In this document: piece after piece, positions 13,511 through 19,492 of the stretch
How the letters are laid out: each line of letters begins with the position of its first letter
How positions within the stretch are numbered: position 1 is the first letter of the stretch
Assembly: GCA_028404505.1 (NCBI GenBank)
Contig: JAOOBM010000003.1
Coordinates: 12,330-76,329 of the forward strand
Direction of reading: 5' to 3'
Length of the DNA stretch: 64,000 nt
DNA from: Acidimicrobiaceae bacterium
Lineage (GTDB): Bacteria; Actinomycetota; Acidimicrobiia; Actinomarinales; Actinomarinaceae
Position numbers and translations under genes: made by a program
The notes under the pieces: generated by a model
Told to the model about the DNA's origin: nothing
The model's input: the letters and a program-made list of their open reading frames with translations, nothing else
Database searches by the model: none

Positions 13511-14275
13511 TTATTTTAATTGATCAATAACTTCTTTTGCCGTATCAATATCAACTGGATTTTCAACATTTCCATCTTTTTTAAAACTTGTTCCAATAAT
13601 CAAAATATCTGCAATATTTTCATATTGATTAATGTTTGTATGATCAACTCCTGATCCAATTGCTAATTTTCCAACAGGAACTATCTCTCTAACCTTTGTA
13701 AGGTCATCCATATTTATTTGATGACCAGTTCCATCACCCGTTACAATAACAACATCTGCACCAGCTCTGTTTATTAATTCTTCTGCATGATTTTCTATTT
13801 TCGAACCCTCTGGTGGTACTGCGTGTTTAACAAACACATCAGCATATATTTCAATATCATTATTTAGATTTTTTTTAAAATCAGAAATTTCATGTGCTTC
13901 ACCTTCAATTATTCCCTGGTCGGTAAACATCATTACATTATTTAAAACATTAATCCTTACAAAATCTGAATTCGTAGCTTCTGCAATTGATAGAGCTGCT
14001 ATTCCATCATTTCTTAAAACATTTATACCAACTTTTAAATCTGAATTTATTTCTAACTTTTGTACAACAGAAGTAAAACTAGCAAGAGTTCTTTTTGAAA
14101 TATCATTTTTTACAAAAGGTACATCACCAAAGTTTTCGATAATAATTCCATCAACCCCAGCAGTATATAAATTTTCTACATCTTTTTGGGCAAGTTTGGT
14201 GATCTCATCTAATCCTAAGGAATTTGACGGTGAACCCGGCAAAGCTTTTAAATGAACTACGCCATGGATGATCAT
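13511..14275 (-). CDS. BtpA/SgcQ family protein
   Basis: IIHGVVHLKALPGSP N-terminus and TIM-barrel-like pattern (IIENFGDVPF) are typical of the BtpA family. Confidence 0.7.
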   Translation of the reverse strand: MIIHGVVHLKALPGSPSNSLGLDEITKLAQKDVENLYTAGVDGIIIENFGDVPFVKNDISKRTLASFTSVVQKLEINSDLKVGINVLRNDGIAALSIAEATNSDFVRINVLNNVMMFTDQGIIEGEAHEISDFKKNLNNDIEIYADVFVKHAVPPEGSKIENHAEELINRAGADVVIVTGDGTGHQINMDDLTKVREIVPVGKLAIGSGVDHTNINQYENIADILIIGTSFKKDGNVENPVDIDTAKEVIDQLK

Positions 14276-14278
14276 AAA

Positions 14279-15016
14279 TTAAATTTTTGCGTGCTGTAGT
14301 TTTAGATATTTTTTTGCAAAATCCCCCTCAACTGAAAGAGTTGGTTTGAATCCCTTATTTGTCCTACCAGTTACAATCCTACACCAGTCACTTGCATTTC
14401 CTTTAATACTATTTTCTGACTTCTCATTTCCAAATTGCCACGCTCTGTATTCAGGACCAATTAATTCAATTCTCAAATCTTTAAACTTGACTTTGTTCTG
14501 TTTACTTGTGTGTTCTGCATTTAGCCATCCAAATAATGCAACATGTTCAATTCTTACTGTATCTTCATAATCTTTTTTCATACTGTCGTAAATGTCTAAG
14601 CCATGAGCCCAAGTTTCAGCTAATTTTGTAGATGAAAATGTGAGATAATCAATTTCGTTATTCCACCATTTTATTTTTTTTCCAGGAGATCCTTTAGCTA
14701 AAATTTCTACAACCTTTGCTCTTGAGAGTCTCCACCACTCAATAACATCTTGTGGTCTCATCTCATTACCTTTTTTTATACATTCTTTTTCAAATTTTTC
14801 TAACCCTTTTGGCCCCCTGTATTTATTGAAATCGGTACCTTTCTTTTTCATTGCGTTAAGCGCTAGATCTTCCAGTCCTGCTAGATAACTTACATGATTT
14901 GTGATGTTCCAATTCTTAAAGGTTGTTTTGGTATCCCAATTTCTTACAGGAATACTTTGTAAGTATTGATCTAGAAGTTGCTGTTCAGCTACAAGACTGC
15001 TTAATAAATCTTTCAC
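14279..15016 (-). CDS. DinB-like / mycothiol-dependent maleylpyruvate isomerase family metal-binding protein (TIGR03084-like)
   Basis: N-terminal DinB-type helix bundle pattern (LLSSLVAEQQLLDQYL..W...T....W.I..HV) with a conserved C-terminal part. Family assigned from memory. Confidence 0.55.
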   Translation of the reverse strand: MKDLLSSLVAEQQLLDQYLQSIPVRNWDTKTTFKNWNITNHVSYLAGLEDLALNAMKKKGTDFNKYRGPKGLEKFEKECIKKGNEMRPQDVIEWWRLSRAKVVEILAKGSPGKKIKWWNNEIDYLTFSSTKLAETWAHGLDIYDSMKKDYEDTVRIEHVALFGWLNAEHTSKQNKVKFKDLRIELIGPEYRAWQFGNEKSENSIKGNASDWCRIVTGRTNKGFKPTLSVEGDFAKKYLKLQHAKI

Positions 15017-15107
15017 AGTTCAATTTTAATTGTGAAACTCTCTTACTCCAATAGGAACATCAAATAAAATACTTTATTTATGATTTAAATCTACGTATTA
15101 TCTATAT

Positions 15108-15317
15108 ATGAAGAAAATCATAAAGTTAGTAATATCGACAATTTTAATAAAAGTATTTTATGACGTTTTTAATGAAAACAAGTTTGTTAAAGAACAGATT
15201 GATAAATTAAAAGAAGAAGTTACAAATTTAGAAATGTCTGATATCGATCAGAAAATTAAAGATTTTCAAAATAAAATCGACGGTTTTAAAAATAAAAATC
15301 AAGACTCTCCGGAGTAA
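15108..15317 (+). CDS. hypothetical small protein (N-terminal hydrophobic helix plus coiled-coil-like K/E-rich tail)
   Basis: ORF only; no recognisable family. Confidence 0.3.
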   Translation: MKKIIKLVISTILIKVFYDVFNENKFVKEQIDKLKEEVTNLEMSDIDQKIKDFQNKIDGFKNKNQDSPE

Positions 15318-15401
15318 AATATCTGGAAATTACTAGGTAAAACATTCTCATATTGGCCAACTTGGCTCGTCAAGTTAATAACAACTGCTCATTCAAATAT
15401 T

Positions 15402-15770
15402 ATGAAATTCAATCATACATTTATTGGCAGAAAGCTAATAGGGGAGAATATTTTACTCCTAGAAACAGTTGGACGTAAATCAAATAAATTAAGAAAAACA
15501 CCTTTGACTTATGTTGTAATTGATGAAGGATATCTTGTTGCAGCCTCATATGGAGGGAGAGACAAAACTCCTGATTGGTTTTTCAACATAAATACAGACA
15601 AAGTAAAAATACTCGTAAATAAGGAATACAAAGATGCAAAGCCTTTAATTGTTGATGAACTTGAAAAGGAAGAGTATTGGAAACTATTAACTGATTTCTA
15701 TCCTACTTTTAATCTTTACAGGTCAAAAACAGAGAGAGATATTCCTTTAGTAAAACTTGTTACAAACTAG
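15402..15770 (+). CDS. deazaflavin (F420)-dependent nitroreductase family protein (DDN/DUF385)
   Basis: LLLETVGRKSNKLRKTPLTYVV...AASYGGRDKTPDWFFNI matches the DDN family core. The start is uncertain because the family-like N-terminal helix (WPTWLVKLITTAHSNI) lies upstream of the first ATG. Confidence 0.7.
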   Translation: MKFNHTFIGRKLIGENILLLETVGRKSNKLRKTPLTYVVIDEGYLVAASYGGRDKTPDWFFNINTDKVKILVNKEYKDAKPLIVDELEKEEYWKLLTDFYPTFNLYRSKTERDIPLVKLVTN

Positions 15771-16746
15771 GTTTTATATTTGGACCGTTTCTTACCACGG
15801 TATTCCATAGTGTCGAATAATGATCAAGGTCTTCAGGATTTACATGAGGAAGAACCATATTTTTCCATGTTTCATGCAAAGGATCTGAAGCATTTTTGTA
15901 CAAATCTAATCCAACGGGAATTCTTTCTACAACTGTTCTAAGACTCATTGGCGTTTCAATATTGATGCTTATGTCATCAGATAAAAATGAGTTATTAATT
16001 TCAATAGCCAATTTGATTATTAGATCTGTGAATTCATTTTGTAATTTTGGATATCGTTTTTTAAATATTGATTCAAGCTGTTCTTTGTTAGGAAAAGGTT
16101 TATCCCAAATAACCCATCGATCAGCAAATGCTTTGTTTAGAGTTTGTGTTCCCGCATAATCTCTTAAGCTCGTTGGATTCATTGTTCCAAAAATATATGA
16201 GTCATTTCTTAATTCAATAACTTCTCCATTAGGAAGCTCTAGTTTTTTATGTCTATCTAATAGTGAATGTAAAGCAAATAAAACTTCTGGTCCAGCTGCA
16301 TTTAATTCTGATAGATTAATAATGGAAGGTCCTCTTAGTGCTCTGGTTAATTCGCCATCCTGCCATTTGGAATCTGTTCCACCAACTCCATCTCCATATA
16401 ATTGAACTGAACCAAGTAAAGTCACGTCTCTAACTTCACCTGATAAAGGAATCCGATAGTATGGATAATTTAATTTTGCAGCTAATTGCTCTATGTCGTG
16501 ATCCTTACCTGTTCCCATATGTCCTTTAAGTGCAATATGAATCGGGATTTCATTTTTAAACGTATCTTCTTTGCTCTTAATAATTTGAGCTAATTTATAT
16601 TGAATTCCAAAGTCTACATAATTTTTATCTAACTCAGGTATGCGTTCGGCTCTTGATTCATAATCAGGAATTGATTTTGATAGCTTACATTCATTTAGCT
16701 TTATATCACCCTTACCAGTTGGGTTTTTAAATATCTGTTCAGCCAT
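15760..16746 (-). CDS. CobS-like / MoxR-class AAA+ ATPase with atypical Walker motifs
   Basis: GHMGTGKDHDIEQLAAKLNYPYYRIPL resembles CobS GYHGTGKSTHIEQVAARLNWP (recalled from memory). ATG at 16746 shares one nt with the upstream TGA. The track uses the TTG at 16749. Confidence 0.7.
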   Translation of the reverse strand: MAEQIFKNPTGKGDIKLNECKLSKSIPDYESRAERIPELDKNYVDFGIQYKLAQIIKSKEDTFKNEIPIHIALKGHMGTGKDHDIEQLAAKLNYPYYRIPLSGEVRDVTLLGSVQLYGDGVGGTDSKWQDGELTRALRGPSIINLSELNAAGPEVLFALHSLLDRHKKLELPNGEVIELRNDSYIFGTMNPTSLRDYAGTQTLNKAFADRWVIWDKPFPNKEQLESIFKKRYPKLQNEFTDLIIKLAIEINNSFLSDDISINIETPMSLRTVVERIPVGLDLYKNASDPLHETWKNMVLPHVNPEDLDHYSTLWNTVVRNGPNIKPSL

Positions 16747-18698
16747 CAAGCAACTCCTGTAGATTCTTCAATATTCTTTATAAGTATATCCTTTGTGATG
16801 TTTACTATTGAATGAATTAACTCTTCAGGTTCATTTATTTGGGTTTTATTTATATATTCTTTCCAAGTGCCTCTTTCTCCAATACCTATCCCAATTACAT
16901 CAATCCCAACTTTGGAAGCATAATTGATAGAACTTTTTAAATCCTCAAGCGATCCTCTTGTCATACCGTCTGACAGTACGGCTAAAAGTTTTGTTTTAGA
17001 ACCTTTTTCTAGAAGTCTTTTTGTAGAAAACATTATATTTCTTTCATCAACATTGGTTCCTCTTTCAAACATGCTTGCAGGTGGGTGATCCAAATTAGAT
17101 TCTATTTTGTCTAATGACTCCCTTAAGTTTCTTGAAAATTCAATTAAACCTATAAACTTTTCATAATTTTCTTTCCATGAATCATCAAACTTTTTAATAA
17201 AATAATGATTTGTTGTATTGAAATAATATTCAGCATTCGATCCATAATTTGTATTTAGCATCGAGGAAACAGCCATCTTTCTCTTTAAATATAATTCTTC
17301 ATTTTCTAATTCATCTGCAGCGAAGCTCCTATTAAAAATTGCTACTTCAAAATCAATATCTAATTCATGGCAGATTTGTGCAAGATAACTTGCTCCTATT
17401 AATGCCGCAGAGAGTGACCAGGGATAGAAATCACCTTTATCTTTTTCAAGCATTGATCCACTTCCATCAATTAGTAAAGATACCGCATAAGATTTGTTTG
17501 AAAGCCGCTGTTTTTGTTCAAACATTCTTTCATACCTACCTGATGCAAGCATTAGAGGAACATGTGGTGATAAATCGCCCTGATCATAACCACTGATTCT
17601 TAGCCTTTTTTTGTTATGTATAAAGTAAGGTTTTATTTTGTTTGTAACTTTGAATACGGGCAGATCCCATTCTTCCAACAGGGAGTTATAAGTATTTAAT
17701 CCATTTGTATATAAATTTTTAAATGATTTTGGTAAATTTGTACTCAGTAATTTTGATACTTTACCATTTGGAAGATAAACGGTTGAGGATGTTCCAACTT
17801 TTGAAACATGATCATCCATAAAGTTAAGCTTTTCATCTTCTGAATCTGCACCCTTTTTACCTAAGAATTTTTCCAAGGTATTACCTGAAGTAATGTTTGT
17901 ACTAGAAGGAATTAAGACTTTGTTTAAATCATCAATCACGGAGTCTTCAAAATTTTCTATTGATTCTCTACGTTCTCCCAATGTTTGGTTATCAACATCT
18001 GGTAATAGATTGTATCTTCTACAAATATCTGTAATTTCTATCGTTATATCAATAGTGTCTTCTATCAAGTTTTTATCATATGAAAAATTATCTAATACTC
18101 TTAAAGTTTCTTTTAAAGGTTCTTTAATATTTTTTGGATACTTTTCTACATCTAATTCAACATATCCTGTGATGTTATGAAAAAGCAATGTTAAAAATTT
18201 ATTGAAAGGCTTTAAATTTTTTATGTTGATACTAGATTCTTTATAAATATCCTCGAGGATTGATCTAAGCCCGTTAAAGTTTTTTACAAATTGAAACTCA
18301 TCATAGGAATGCACAAGTATTTCAAAAATGTATTTTCCAAATGGACCTGCGAGAACTTCAAGAACTTCATCAATGTTAGTTAACCCTTCAGTGTCATCTT
18401 TATATTTTGTGAGATCTTCATCAACATTAAAATTATATTCTTCCATAGAATGGATAGCCTCATGGACTACAGTTCCAATTATTAATTCCTTAAATTCAAG
18501 TTCTGAATCTGAAACTGCATTAACCAAAATAGATGGATTTATGTTGATCTCGTTCTTGTTTTTGCTTTTGGTTTTACCAAGATTAATAACAATATTTGCA
18601 TTATCAGTTTCGGATTGTATTAGTCGTGTAATTGCTGGACTAATTTTTTGAAATATTTCAATAATTTGAGTTTCTAAAGTTTTTTTCTTAAATTCCAT
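16746..18698 (-). CDS. VWA-domain protein with N-terminal HExxH region (CobT-like or metallopeptidase+VWA DUF2201-like)
   Basis: C-terminal VWA with MIDAS motif LLIDGSGSM and LAVLSDGMTRG. N-terminal VVHEAIHSMEEY is an HExxH motif. 650 aa, coupled to the AAA gene. Confidence 0.65.
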   Translation of the reverse strand: MEFKKKTLETQIIEIFQKISPAITRLIQSETDNANIVINLGKTKSKNKNEININPSILVNAVSDSELEFKELIIGTVVHEAIHSMEEYNFNVDEDLTKYKDDTEGLTNIDEVLEVLAGPFGKYIFEILVHSYDEFQFVKNFNGLRSILEDIYKESSINIKNLKPFNKFLTLLFHNITGYVELDVEKYPKNIKEPLKETLRVLDNFSYDKNLIEDTIDITIEITDICRRYNLLPDVDNQTLGERRESIENFEDSVIDDLNKVLIPSSTNITSGNTLEKFLGKKGADSEDEKLNFMDDHVSKVGTSSTVYLPNGKVSKLLSTNLPKSFKNLYTNGLNTYNSLLEEWDLPVFKVTNKIKPYFIHNKKRLRISGYDQGDLSPHVPLMLASGRYERMFEQKQRLSNKSYAVSLLIDGSGSMLEKDKGDFYPWSLSAALIGASYLAQICHELDIDFEVAIFNRSFAADELENEELYLKRKMAVSSMLNTNYGSNAEYYFNTTNHYFIKKFDDSWKENYEKFIGLIEFSRNLRESLDKIESNLDHPPASMFERGTNVDERNIMFSTKRLLEKGSKTKLLAVLSDGMTRGSLEDLKSSINYASKVGIDVIGIGIGERGTWKEYINKTQINEPEELIHSIVNITKDILIKNIEESTGVA

Positions 18699-18739
18699 TT
18701 TTTATCATTATCATTAAAGACTGATAATACAAGTATAAG

Positions 18740-19492
18740 GTGAATATTAAGTTGAATGAAATTGCAAACAAGACTGTAATCGTTTCCGGTGGTAAAGGAA
18801 GCATGGGAGTGATGGTCTCAAATTTTATTAATGATCTAGATGACTTTGAAGTAATTGGGATAGTTGATCCTGGAGAAAATGACTCATCATTTAAAAACTT
18901 TTTAATATCGGATGATCTTGTATGTGATTATATTTTTGAATTTGCTCCAGCATCTGTTGTTAATGAAAATATTAAGATTCTTGTAAATAATGATGCCAAA
19001 TTAATAATTGGATCATCAGGTGTGAATGATGAATCAATTAAACTATTAAAAAATTCTGAAAAAGGAATTGCACTTATTCCTAATTTTTCAGCAGGTGCAG
19101 CTTTCCAAAAAGTTTTTTCTGAGCAGTTATCAAATACATTTAAGAATGTACACATAGTAGAAAAACATCATTCAAATAAGGAAGATGCACCATCTGGGAC
19201 TTCAAAAGATGTTGCTTCAAGTTTAGAAAAGATGAACTCAGAAGATATAGAGGGGGAGTATTTTGCAACAACCGAGGAAAATTCAATCAATATTTATTCA
19301 TTAAGATCGGATGATTATTTAGCTGAACAAGAAGTCGTATTTTCTAATACTTTTGAAGAATTTATTCTTGAACATAAAGTTAATGATAGAAAAGCATATT
19401 TAACAGGTATCGAGATAGTATTACGTGAAATGGAAAATGTAAATTCTTACGTTTATGGACTTGAAACTCTTATGAAAGAAGCAATGGACTGA
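18740..19492 (+). CDS. dapB: 4-hydroxy-tetrahydrodipicolinate reductase
   Basis: SGGKGSMG nucleotide-binding motif and EKHHSNKEDAPSGTS (DapB E-x-HH-x-x-K-x-DAPSGT signature). Confidence 0.8.
   Translation: MNIKLNEIANKTVIVSGGKGSMGVMVSNFINDLDDFEVIGIVDPGENDSSFKNFLISDDLVCDYIFEFAPASVVNENIKILVNNDAKLIIGSSGVNDESIKLLKNSEKGIALIPNFSAGAAFQKVFSEQLSNTFKNVHIVEKHHSNKEDAPSGTSKDVASSLEKMNSEDIEGEYFATTEENSINIYSLRSDDYLAEQEVVFSNTFEEFILEHKVNDRKAYLTGIEIVLREMENVNSYVYGLETLMKEAMD

Follow-up and report, generated by a model that had tools for sequence, protein, structure and literature searches.

In the window, a stretch of 64,000 nucleotides from an Acidimicrobiaceae genome, two overlapping genes encode a CobS-like AAA+ ATPase and a CobT-like VWA protein, and the pair is read here, with somewhat better than even confidence, as an ATP-driven AAA+/VWA remodelling motor whose Mg-site residue pair would be inverted and which appears to be branch-specific and vertically inherited. 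The reading is built on alignments and on analogy with solved complexes. The pair is not a cobaltochelatase, and the 'cobaltochelatase CobS' labels on the Acidimicrobiia pair family are wrong. The genes of the locus are as follows.

16746..18698, minus strand: gene of the CobT-like VWA protein, 650 aa (ORF), with an HExxH-bearing N-domain, a linker, a candidate shaft and a VWA/MIDAS domain.
15760..16746, minus strand: gene of the CobS-like AAA_5 ATPase, 328 aa (ORF; ATG 16744-16746, stop 15760-15762).
14279..15016, minus strand: TIGR03084-like DinB-fold metal-binding protein by family assignment, downstream and syntenic.
13511..14275, minus strand: BtpA/SgcQ by family assignment, downstream and syntenic.

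The stop codon TGA of the VWA gene (16746-16748) meets the ATG of the ATPase gene (16744-16746) in a TGATG junction with an overlap of 1-4 nt, and the coupling claimed in a preliminary description of this DNA is seen in the ORF coordinates; a TTG one codon upstream of the ATG is an alternative ATPase start, giving 329 aa. The order VWA then AAA, described there as the reverse of cobS-cobT, also stands, since in each of 16 distant loci the AAA gene is immediately preceded by the VWA gene, whose product is there only 27-31% identical, and the same order was found at 77 of 80 further loci, the other three being assumed to be truncated at contig ends. The AAA gene comes first in the Cupriavidus, phage and plasmid homologues. 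A gene on the opposite strand (15402..15770) stands between the pair and the DinB-like and BtpA genes in the window.

The pair is carried by 501 genomes, in only one branch of Acidimicrobiia, and among the matches listed, 79 of 80 genomes are named Actinomarina, OCS155, Acidimicrobiia/Acidimicrobiaceae, Actinomycetota, Actinomycetes or just 'bacterium'. At ~1 Mb, the genomes of Candidatus Actinomarina rank among the smallest of free-living surface-ocean organisms, and despite this size the pair was present in 46 of the 47 genus genomes sampled, as well as in 48 other class genomes from 8 families (201 class genomes examined). The pair probably does something important, because it is retained in a ~1 Mb genome and throughout the Acidimicrobiia branch. 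In at least 9 families its place on the chromosome is the same, with dapB on one side and the DinB-like/BtpA genes on the other; no mobile-element genes were found near it at the loci compared, and its GC resembles that of the flanking DNA. The DinB-like gene and then BtpA follow the pair in the same order at distant loci, BtpA usually a few kb downstream and on the same strand. BtpA is present in 85 of the 201 class genomes and all 85 also carry the pair, a co-occurrence that is confounded by phylogeny because a single clade is involved. The DinB-like and BtpA/SgcQ genes may be functionally linked to the pair, and BtpA/SgcQ and the TIGR03084-like DinB-fold protein are the only client candidates to which the data point.

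In Pfam, the ATPase matches AAA_5 (PF07728) with 60.9 bits (cut-off 22; E 1.8e-16), and this domain score, together with the presence of K81, E147, N190, R210 and R270, places it in the AAA_5, or MoxR-CobS-midasin, group. The best characterised matches of the pair are CobS (TIGR01650; PDB 9ujv, matched at 8e-18) and CobT (PDB 9uka/21vt). The TIGR01650 score is 66.7 bits for the window ATPase and 44.1 bits for that of a high-GC relative, below the curated equivalog cut-off of 558.55, and in PHROGs the phage 'porphyrin biosynthesis' family phrog_249 matches with 101.8 bits (1e-28). The ATP site is laid out as follows.

16501..16524, minus strand: Walker A GHMGTGKD, residues 75-82, with Asp82 (GAT, 16501-16503) in place of the Mg-binding Ser/Thr.
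16306..16323, minus strand: Walker B equivalent IINLSE, residues 142-147, with Ser146 (TCA, 16309-16311) for Asp and the catalytic Glu147 retained.
16177..16179, minus strand: sensor 1 Asn190, invariant; by alignment position, N186/N182 of CobS in the preprints cited below.
16117..16119, minus strand: arginine finger Arg210 (FADRW), invariant; aligned with 'DRW/DRF' of CobS, phage and plasmid homologues.
15937..15939, minus strand: sensor 2 Arg270 (SLR), invariant; CobS sensor 2 is R271/R267.

The arginine finger of CobS is R210/R206 (bioRxiv 10.64898/2026.07.21.739949, 10.64898/2026.10.09.757910). The Asp in Walker A and the Ser in Walker B, proposed in the preliminary description as a reciprocal swap, prove to lie at homologous positions, where GKD and hhhhSE replace the canonical GK[ST] and hhhhDE of CobS. 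On midasin AAA domains (HMMER), GHMGTGKD falls on GPTSSGKT/GSPGVGKT and IINLSELN on IVLDELN, and in the MAFFT alignment GHMGTGKD / IINLSE stands opposite GLHGTGKS / LIFDEYD of Cupriavidus CobS, GHTGTGKT / LIVDEID of Cobavirinae phage CobS and GPTGCGKS / LIDEYD of a plasmid MoxR-family ATPase. No alternative hhhhDE motif was seen on reading the ATPase translation, and the alignments back the motif assignment. Asp82 and Ser146 occur together without exception, both in the 16 sequences aligned and in the 75 distinct cores of the family. The two changes are therefore fixed together across the whole family, but the co-variation that had been suggested as a check is itself not demonstrable, and neither is compensation, because the intermediate states GKD+DE and GKT+SE are absent (0 among the 75 distinct cores).

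Lys81, Glu147, Asn190, Arg210, Arg270 and the whole P-loop are invariant in the ATPase alignment (16 sequences). Since the catalytic residues do not vary and ATPase identity between Acidimicrobiia families is 55-60%, against 27-31% for the partner, strong purifying selection on the motor is indicated. The features of the partner are listed below.

17913..18698, minus strand: N-terminal domain of CobT_N type, residues 1-262; helix, small beta-sheet and helical bundle in AF2.
18450..18464, minus strand: HExxH (H79 E80 A I H83; HEAIH, residues 79-83), invariant.
18297..18299, minus strand: Glu134, candidate third metal ligand, in an E-D-x-x-x-E helix; invariant.
17844..17912, minus strand: linker of low confidence, residues 263-285 (pLDDT <50 in the full-length AF2 model).
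17499..17618, minus strand: candidate 'shaft/finger', residues 361-400, conserved yet predicted disordered (pLDDT <50).
16749..17498, minus strand: VWA domain, residues 401-650, with a complete MIDAS (D411, S413, S415, N549, D577).

Overall, the partner has the architecture of CobT, with an N-domain, a linker, a shaft that presumably inserts into the pore, and a VWA domain with a D-x-S-x-S...N...D MIDAS. Its CobT_C (PF11775) score is 19.7 bits (gathering score 21), and no Pfam match to PF06213 (CobT N-domain) was found in any of 17 family members; a phage CobT-like protein passes both. The VWA-family profile matches CobT 9uka_G and 21vt_A with E about 1e-3, and the PHROGs matches of the protein are phrog_1576, phrog_5298 and phrog_17276. 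The AF2 model of the N-domain (pLDDT 91.6, pTM 0.88) has viral VWFA or CobT-like proteins as its top Foldseek matches in BFVD (probability 1.0, TMq up to 0.63), and proteins of Gordonia (actinobacterial) phages are among the best of them.

The HExxH motif is invariant in 31 N-domain sequences, with a distant clade just 16-22% identical to the window protein, and all 77 upstream ORFs extracted have it too, though possession of the motif was a requirement of that extraction. The equivalent position reads HEAGH in the phage CobT-like protein, HEIGH in the plasmid VWA protein and DSMAL in Brucella CobT. Just 14 N-domain columns are invariant, and HExxH and Glu134 belong to them; in the AF2 model they lie in helices 69-84 and 121-138, respectively. 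The Glu134 helix aligns with 'EQARVE' of CobT, and with 'LEDIWME' of the phage protein in an hhalign N-domain alignment that is not significant alone (E 0.11). CobT_N has been proposed as a gluzincin, or M48-like zincin-type metallopeptidase. For the N-domain, Foldseek gave no match of any kind below E 0.8, and so none to a solved zincin fold, in the PDB copy searched, which returned no CobT_N; the peptidase-like matches in BFVD were weak, 'Lethal factor' at E 0.16 and 'Zinc-binding metallo-peptidase' at E 0.33. The likeness to DUF2201-type partners of MoxR ATPases that had been suggested for the HExxH region found no support: in Pfam, the window protein matched neither DUF2201_N nor DUF2201 at E<=1, and the 17 family members matched neither at E<=0.1. 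The HExxH motif falls instead in a CobT_N-type domain common to phage and plasmid CobT-like proteins.

Residues 263-285 have their counterpart in the disordered linker of CobT (bioRxiv 10.64898/2026.07.21.739949). The segment 361-400 sits 11-50 residues ahead of MIDAS Asp411, and the shaft of CobT, Q373-R413, sits 9-49 residues ahead of MIDAS D422 (CobST preprints, bioRxiv 10.64898/2026.07.21.739949, 10.64898/2026.10.09.757910). N362, R365, G370, D372, G374, D375, S377, P378, L382, G387, Y389, R391 and E394 are invariant in this segment. All five MIDAS residues are likewise invariant, DGSGS being residues 411-415 (17454-17468), and the CobT residues aligned with N549 and D577 are N518 and D546. 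Within the PDB, Foldseek ranks the VWA domain of NorD, from NorQD complexes (5e-7), and the MIDAS domain of MDN1 highest for the VWA fold.

A mechanism for the pair can be proposed on these grounds. The CobS/CobT motor of aerobic cobaltochelatase, the phage and plasmid CobST-like pairs and the Acidimicrobiia pair may derive from a common stock. On the model of the solved structures of CobST and NorQD, the ATPase would assemble into a hexameric ring, the N-domain of the partner would dock onto the ATPase lid domain, the conserved and flexible residues 361-400 would enter the pore as a shaft, and ATP-driven movements would be relayed to a client at the MIDAS face of the VWA domain. In all P-loop NTPases, [S/T]K+1 and Asp-WB are described as the sole strictly conserved, proton-capable residues, forming a hydrogen-bonded pair around Mg2+ (PMC9599734). 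In the Acidimicrobiia ATPase, the site would still be catalytic with this Mg2+/proton-relay pair inverted: Asp82 (Walker A K+1) may be the Mg2+ ligand, with Ser146, in the place of the Walker B Asp, hydrogen-bonded to Asp82; the site would then still have one carboxylate and one hydroxyl, and the two side chains would add up to the same length. HExxH and Glu134 of the partner may form a functional metal site, either peptidase-like or metal-handling. A fuller version, put forward only tentatively from the sequences, combines the inverted P-loop carboxylate and Walker B hydroxyl with a motor that would drive the trans-acting HExxH site on the VWA partner, as a two-component analogue of an AAA+ metalloprotease or as a new metal-insertion chaperone, and that would act on the co-inherited BtpA/DinB-like proteins.

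It is rather unlikely, though it deserves some weight, that the ATPase is catalytically dead or very slow and that the ring, likened to the degenerate sites of midasin or dynein, serves the VWA/HExxH partner as a scaffold or switch, whether nucleotide-binding or nucleotide-free. In many P-loop NTPases activity is lost when either [S/T]K+1 or Asp-WB alone is changed, and such a change is normally fatal to the enzyme (PMC9599734), so the ATPase could be a nucleotide-binding, non-hydrolysing scaffold, and degenerate P-loops do occur in the nearest relatives, where ~4% of 725 midasin-type P-loops are not S/T. However, degenerate sites normally drift, whereas here Lys81, Glu147, the sensors, the Arg finger and the P-loop stay invariant at 55-60% identity and both changes are fixed together in every core; moreover, there is a single AAA+ gene, and thus no active paralogue to power a mixed ring.

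Matches to viral proteins bear on another reading, an improbable one, in which the pair would be a mobile-element module domesticated from HExxH-keeping phage or plasmid CobST-like pairs and would have nucleic-acid, replication-associated or defence-related targets rather than a role in metal or cofactor handling. In its favour, phrog_249 outscores TIGR01650 CobS as a match for the ATPase (101.8 vs 66.7 bits), the N-domain is structurally closest to viral CobT-like proteins, those of Gordonia phages among them, and homologues of phages and conjugative plasmids carry HExxH amid replication or recombination genes. Against this stand the one fixed chromosomal site in at least 9 families without mobile-element genes nearby, a GC like that of the flanks, a gene order opposite to that of the mobile versions, and the PADLOC anti-phage defence models, which matched neither protein nor the high-GC relatives. 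That the pair is a genuine cobaltochelatase, or the motor of another class I tetrapyrrole chelatase with an unrecognised CobN-like subunit, is very improbable and already largely refuted, even though some sources annotate a 'cobaltochelatase CobS' and the closest solved relatives are CobS and CobT. CobN/ChlH (PF02514) was not found in the window's genome, in the 47 genus genomes (0/47) or in the ~95 pair-bearing class genomes, and the 13 of 201 class genomes that have it all lack the pair; CbiC and B12-binding domains above the cut-off were each found in 0 of 41 genus genomes, and the TIGR01650 score is far under its cut-off. The CobN and corrin pathway that would accompany CobS do not co-occur with the pair. 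The earlier claim of a CobN-less CobS/CobT-like pair is thus borne out by the matches to CobS, CobT and phrog_249 and by the genome-wide check for cobN, and CobN-less CobST-like pairs do exist in phages, as had been said there (searches here; PMC8651126).

The motor reading with an inverted Mg-site pair bears on how Mg-ATP hydrolysis starts, since a strongly conserved family has traded its Walker A and B residues with the rest of the site intact; if the inversion is true, the family would be a ready-made test of the pair as a Mg2+ ligand and proton-relay module. Seen alongside its phage and plasmid counterparts, the pair suggests a wide class of HExxH-bearing, CobN-less CobST-like motors, from which the cobaltochelatase motor would have branched off as a specialised form, losing the metal motif.

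Among known systems, the mechanism and structures of CobST have been described in Brucella melitensis and Rhodobacter capsulatus (bioRxiv 10.64898/2026.07.21.739949, 10.64898/2026.10.09.757910; PDB 9ujv, 9uka series). The pair resembles CobS in its AAA_5 ATPase of ~330 aa, in a close P-loop context (GHMGTGKDHDIEQ vs GLHGTGKSTHIEQ) and in the YxGTQxLNxAxxDRW block with its sensor and Arg-finger positions, and CobT in the N-domain, the disordered linker, the shaft ahead of the VWA domain and the five MIDAS residues. It differs in the absence of CobN or a corrin pathway, in the order VWA then AAA, in Asp for the Walker A Ser/Thr and Ser for the Walker B Asp, in the HExxH retained where CobT has DSMAL, and in scores under the cut-offs (66.7 vs 558 bits for TIGR01650, 19.7 vs 21 for CobT_C).

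The CobST-like pairs of phages and archaeal viruses, known from Cobavirinae, cyanophages, Gordonia phages and haloarchaeal tailed viruses (PMC8651126), give the best structural match of the N-domain and the best profile match of the ATPase; they too lack CobN on the same replicon, and HExxH is intact in their CobT-like partner (HEAGH), which has the E-D-x-x-x-E helix as well. Unlike the Acidimicrobiia pair, which is chromosomal, syntenic and vertically inherited, they have canonical GKT/DE, place the AAA gene first and reside in mobile genomes. In the conjugative-plasmid trio MoxR-family ATPase - DUF3150 - VWA (on Moellerella/Providencia MOBH plasmids, for example), the CobS-like ATPase aligns over 91% of the query and the VWA partner has HEIGH at residue 64, but the trio has an additional DUF3150 gene, canonical Walker motifs, the AAA gene first and a setting of plasmid transfer and recombination genes. 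NorQ/NorD and CbbQ/CbbO (PMC13036017, PMC9976466) share an AAA_5-type ring and a VWA partner with a finger into the pore, the NorD VWA domain being the top PDB fold match of the pair's own; however, their clients (cNOR, Rubisco) are encoded nearby, their Walker motifs are canonical and they are without the HExxH N-domain.

The two genes of the pair are found on the minus strand, in a sequence with about 32% G+C and in a genome of 0.96 Mb (80% complete) whose nearest relatives in public collections are labelled Candidatus Actinomarina or OCS155 cluster. The features of the region are as follows.

13511-14275, minus strand (that of the pair): BtpA/SgcQ (TIGR00259), from the family search
15402-15770, plus strand: F420H2-dependent quinone-reductase-like gene, convergent with the ATPase gene; the 3' ends overlap by 11 bp, covering the ATPase stop codon
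15760-16746, minus strand: ATPase, 328 aa by ORF translation, with the ATG at 16744-16746 and the end at 15760
16746-18698, minus strand: VWA protein, 650 aa, the TGA stop of which overlaps the ATPase ATG
18699-18739: spacer between the divergent starts of the VWA gene (ATG at 18698) and dapB (GTG at 18740)

The motifs named in the preliminary description are all present at their positions, namely HEAIH (79-83) and DGSGS (411-415) in the long protein, and GHMGTGKD (75-82) and IINLSE (142-147) in the short one.

The ATPase belongs to AAA_5 (Pfam, 1.8e-16). Its top NCBIfam model is CobS TIGR01650, with 66.7 bits against a cut-off of 558.55, and it matches the phage CobS family phrog_249 (labelled 'porphyrin biosynthesis') at 1e-28. 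Of the solved structures, CobS 9ujv gives the strongest match over one continuous stretch (8e-18, residues 26-274), with NorQ and CbbQ next; midasins outscore 9ujv only through the summing of several AAA domains. The Mg-site residue pair of this ATPase is inverted and invariant. The reciprocal swap proposed earlier was confirmed by HMMER alignment with midasin domains and by MAFFT alignment with three homologues (CobS of Cupriavidus, CobS of a Cobavirinae phage, and a MoxR-family ATPase from a conjugative plasmid). In all of them, Asp82 aligns with the Ser/Thr of Walker A and Ser146 with the Asp of Walker B; the catalytic Glu (E147) is kept. No second hhhhDE motif was seen when the window ATPase was read by eye; therefore, canonical Walker residues elsewhere in the sequence, which the preliminary description had considered, do not explain the swap. 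An alignment of sixteen ATPases (55-100% identity) shows no variation in the P-loop (G75-D82), in N144-L145-S146-E147-L148-N149, at sensor 1 (N190), at the Arg finger (R210), or at sensor 2 (R270). All 75 distinct Walker A-to-Walker B cores, from every fetched family member, have D and SE, and none is an intermediate of the GKD + DE or GKT + SE type. In 131 midasin-like proteins, the nearest outgroup, 96% of 725 P-loops have T or S and one has D, and the D/S combination occurs in none of these loops.

[quoted passage not shown] A literature search on 'GKD' Walker A motifs found nothing relevant. Judged from the sequences, the reciprocal exchange would plausibly leave the site with one hydroxyl and one carboxylate, and with no change in the sum of the side-chain lengths.

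The CobS/CobT-like AAA+/VWA pair is specific to one clade, in which it is strongly conserved. When 1.84 billion representative proteins were searched, the best 150 matches listed contained one other full-length 50% cluster (58% identity, high G+C) and then midasins, which account for most of the 150 and whose scores sum over several AAA domains; no intermediate relatives were among these 150. In a sample of 201 genomes of the class, the ATPase was present in 46 of the 47 from the genus, and in 48 further genomes from eight families at 55-60% identity. The single genus genome without it is missing the neighbouring genes too, which points to a gap in the assembly. Across the phylum (301 genomes sampled), the ATPase was found only in Acidimicrobiia. 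Scanning the genomes of 185,579 species for the sequence pattern gave 501 carriers. Of the 80 that were listed, all but one bear the name Actinomarina, OCS155, Acidimicrobiia/Acidimicrobiaceae, or just Actinomycetota, Actinomycetes, or 'bacterium'; the exception is a 'Kiloniellales' MAG contig, probably a binning error. The VWA gene is directly upstream of the ATPase gene in all sixteen distant loci (27-31% identity) and in 77 of 80 additional loci.

Next to the pair, dapB is on the opposite strand at a distance of 41 bp, followed by dapA and ftsK. Since the spacer is so short, the promoters of the VWA gene and dapB must fit inside or overlap it. The sequence GATAAT is present about 8 nt upstream of the VWA ATG. 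In a promoter and terminator scan of 15000-19000, sites were no more numerous than in shuffled sequences. High-G+C relatives have an M16 peptidase gene and dapB on the opposite strand, and the order after dapB is VWA, AAA, LOG/TIGR00730, a TIGR03084-like DinB-fold metal-binding protein, BtpA/SgcQ, an HD-domain protein, and Lhr; in L026, one such pair-bearing relative, the gaps between these genes are tight. The F420H2-dependent quinone-reductase-like gene is absent from the equivalent site in these relatives, where the LOG/TIGR00730 gene is found instead. Since Actinomarina has no LOG gene at the pair site and carries the F420H2-type gene on the opposite strand, the pair forms its own two-gene unit in the window's genome.

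BtpA is usually found a few kb downstream of the pair on the same strand. It is present in 85 of the 201 class genomes, all of them pair-bearing, and no genome lacking the pair has it; the association is striking, yet all of it represents one clade. The TIGR03084-like protein occurs in 165 of the 201 genomes and is too widespread for its phylogenetic profile to be informative. The '1 TGA' flags on its genes raised the possibility of selenocysteine codons; in the one flagged locus translated, the stop is upstream of the start and not intragenic. A defence system was also considered, and PADLOC returned no match.

The pair is not a cobaltochelatase. The preliminary description had noted no CobN nearby; PF02514 (CobN/ChlH) is absent from the window's genome, and the thirteen of 201 class genomes that have it all lack the pair. 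In the genus samples, neither CobN (0/47), CbiC (0/41), nor a B12-binding domain above the Pfam cut-off (0/41) was found, and the cobaltochelatase role was ruled out on these absences. Therefore, it appears that the organism neither makes cobalamin nor uses it through a canonical domain, which suggests a cobalamin-independent lifestyle for Actinomarina.

The C-terminal half of the partner is a VWA domain. The family profile matches CobT structures (21vt, 6e-4; 9uka, 1.5e-3), with N549 and D577 aligned to CobT MIDAS N518 and D546, and MIDAS D411, S413, and S415 are invariant in the family. The top PDB folds for the AF2 model (pLDDT 74.6) are the NorD VWA domain of NorQD complexes and the MDN1 MIDAS domain.

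The partner also carries an intact HExxH/Glu motif: across 31 N-domain sequences only fourteen columns do not vary, and these include H79, E80, H83, and E134. The suggested link to DUF2201-type proteins received no DUF2201_N support from Pfam. For the N-domain model (residues 1-262, pLDDT 91.6), Foldseek gave no significant PDB match, to a zincin fold or to any other; for the zincin fold this is a weak test, as the library did not return CobT_N either. Its best BFVD matches are viral VWFA or CobT-like proteins (probability 1.0, TMq up to 0.63) from haloarchaeal viruses, Gordonia phages, and uncultured phages, and the weaker ones are peptidase-like viral proteins. With hhalign, the motifs of the N-domain profile align with those of phage and plasmid CobT-like sequences, at a non-significant E of 0.11-0.14.

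Outside the family, the closest phylum non-member (genome G284) scores 98 bits to the family profile and has GKT and LLLEELN. At locus L131 of this genome (G284:C18, 3240-6126), there is a convergent pair of an AAA_5 protein (GKT; LLLEELN, with a Glu-Glu Walker B) and a VWA protein. Read by eye from ORF translations, their neighbours look like a corrinoid methyltransferase cluster, with a B12-binding protein, an MtaA-like protein, a CobW-like GTPase, and an ASKHA/ferredoxin-type activase. The window ATPase matched 3347 plasmid records by tblastn, and in the one record inspected, the conjugative MOBH plasmid locus L038 (NZ_CP129023.1, 5088-9287), three genes stand together for a MoxR-family ATPase, a DUF3150 protein, and a VWA protein that has HEIGH; RecT/lambda-exonuclease genes and traF flank this trio.

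CobT_N is reported to be similar to a peptidase M48C domain and to bind the lid of CobS (preprint 10.64898/2026.07.21.739949), and the cobT genes of cyanophages often carry a peptidase annotation (PMC8651126). The Cobavirinae phage CobT-like protein scores above the cut-offs of both Pfam CobT models and can be aligned with Brucella CobT over the full length (4e-29); Brucella CobT reads DSMAL where the phage protein has HEAGH. Further downstream, the phage and plasmid proteins have in common a helix of the form E-D-x-x-x-E...Y-x-G, the CobT counterpart of which reads EQARVE. Together with the plasmid HEIGH, these motifs indicate that HExxH is general to CobN-less CobT-like proteins and was lost in bona fide CobT.

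By analogy with the CobST and NorQD structures (PMC13036017), we infer a mechanism in which the ATPase would form a ring, the partner N-domain would dock on it, the partner shaft would sit in the pore, and a client would be held at the MIDAS. In CobT, the 'shaft' Q373-R413 precedes D422 and enters the CobS pore only with nucleotide bound (CobST preprint literature). Partner residues 361-400 are predicted to be disordered, yet contain thirteen invariant residues, and their position, 11-50 residues ahead of the MIDAS Asp, matches that of the CobT shaft.
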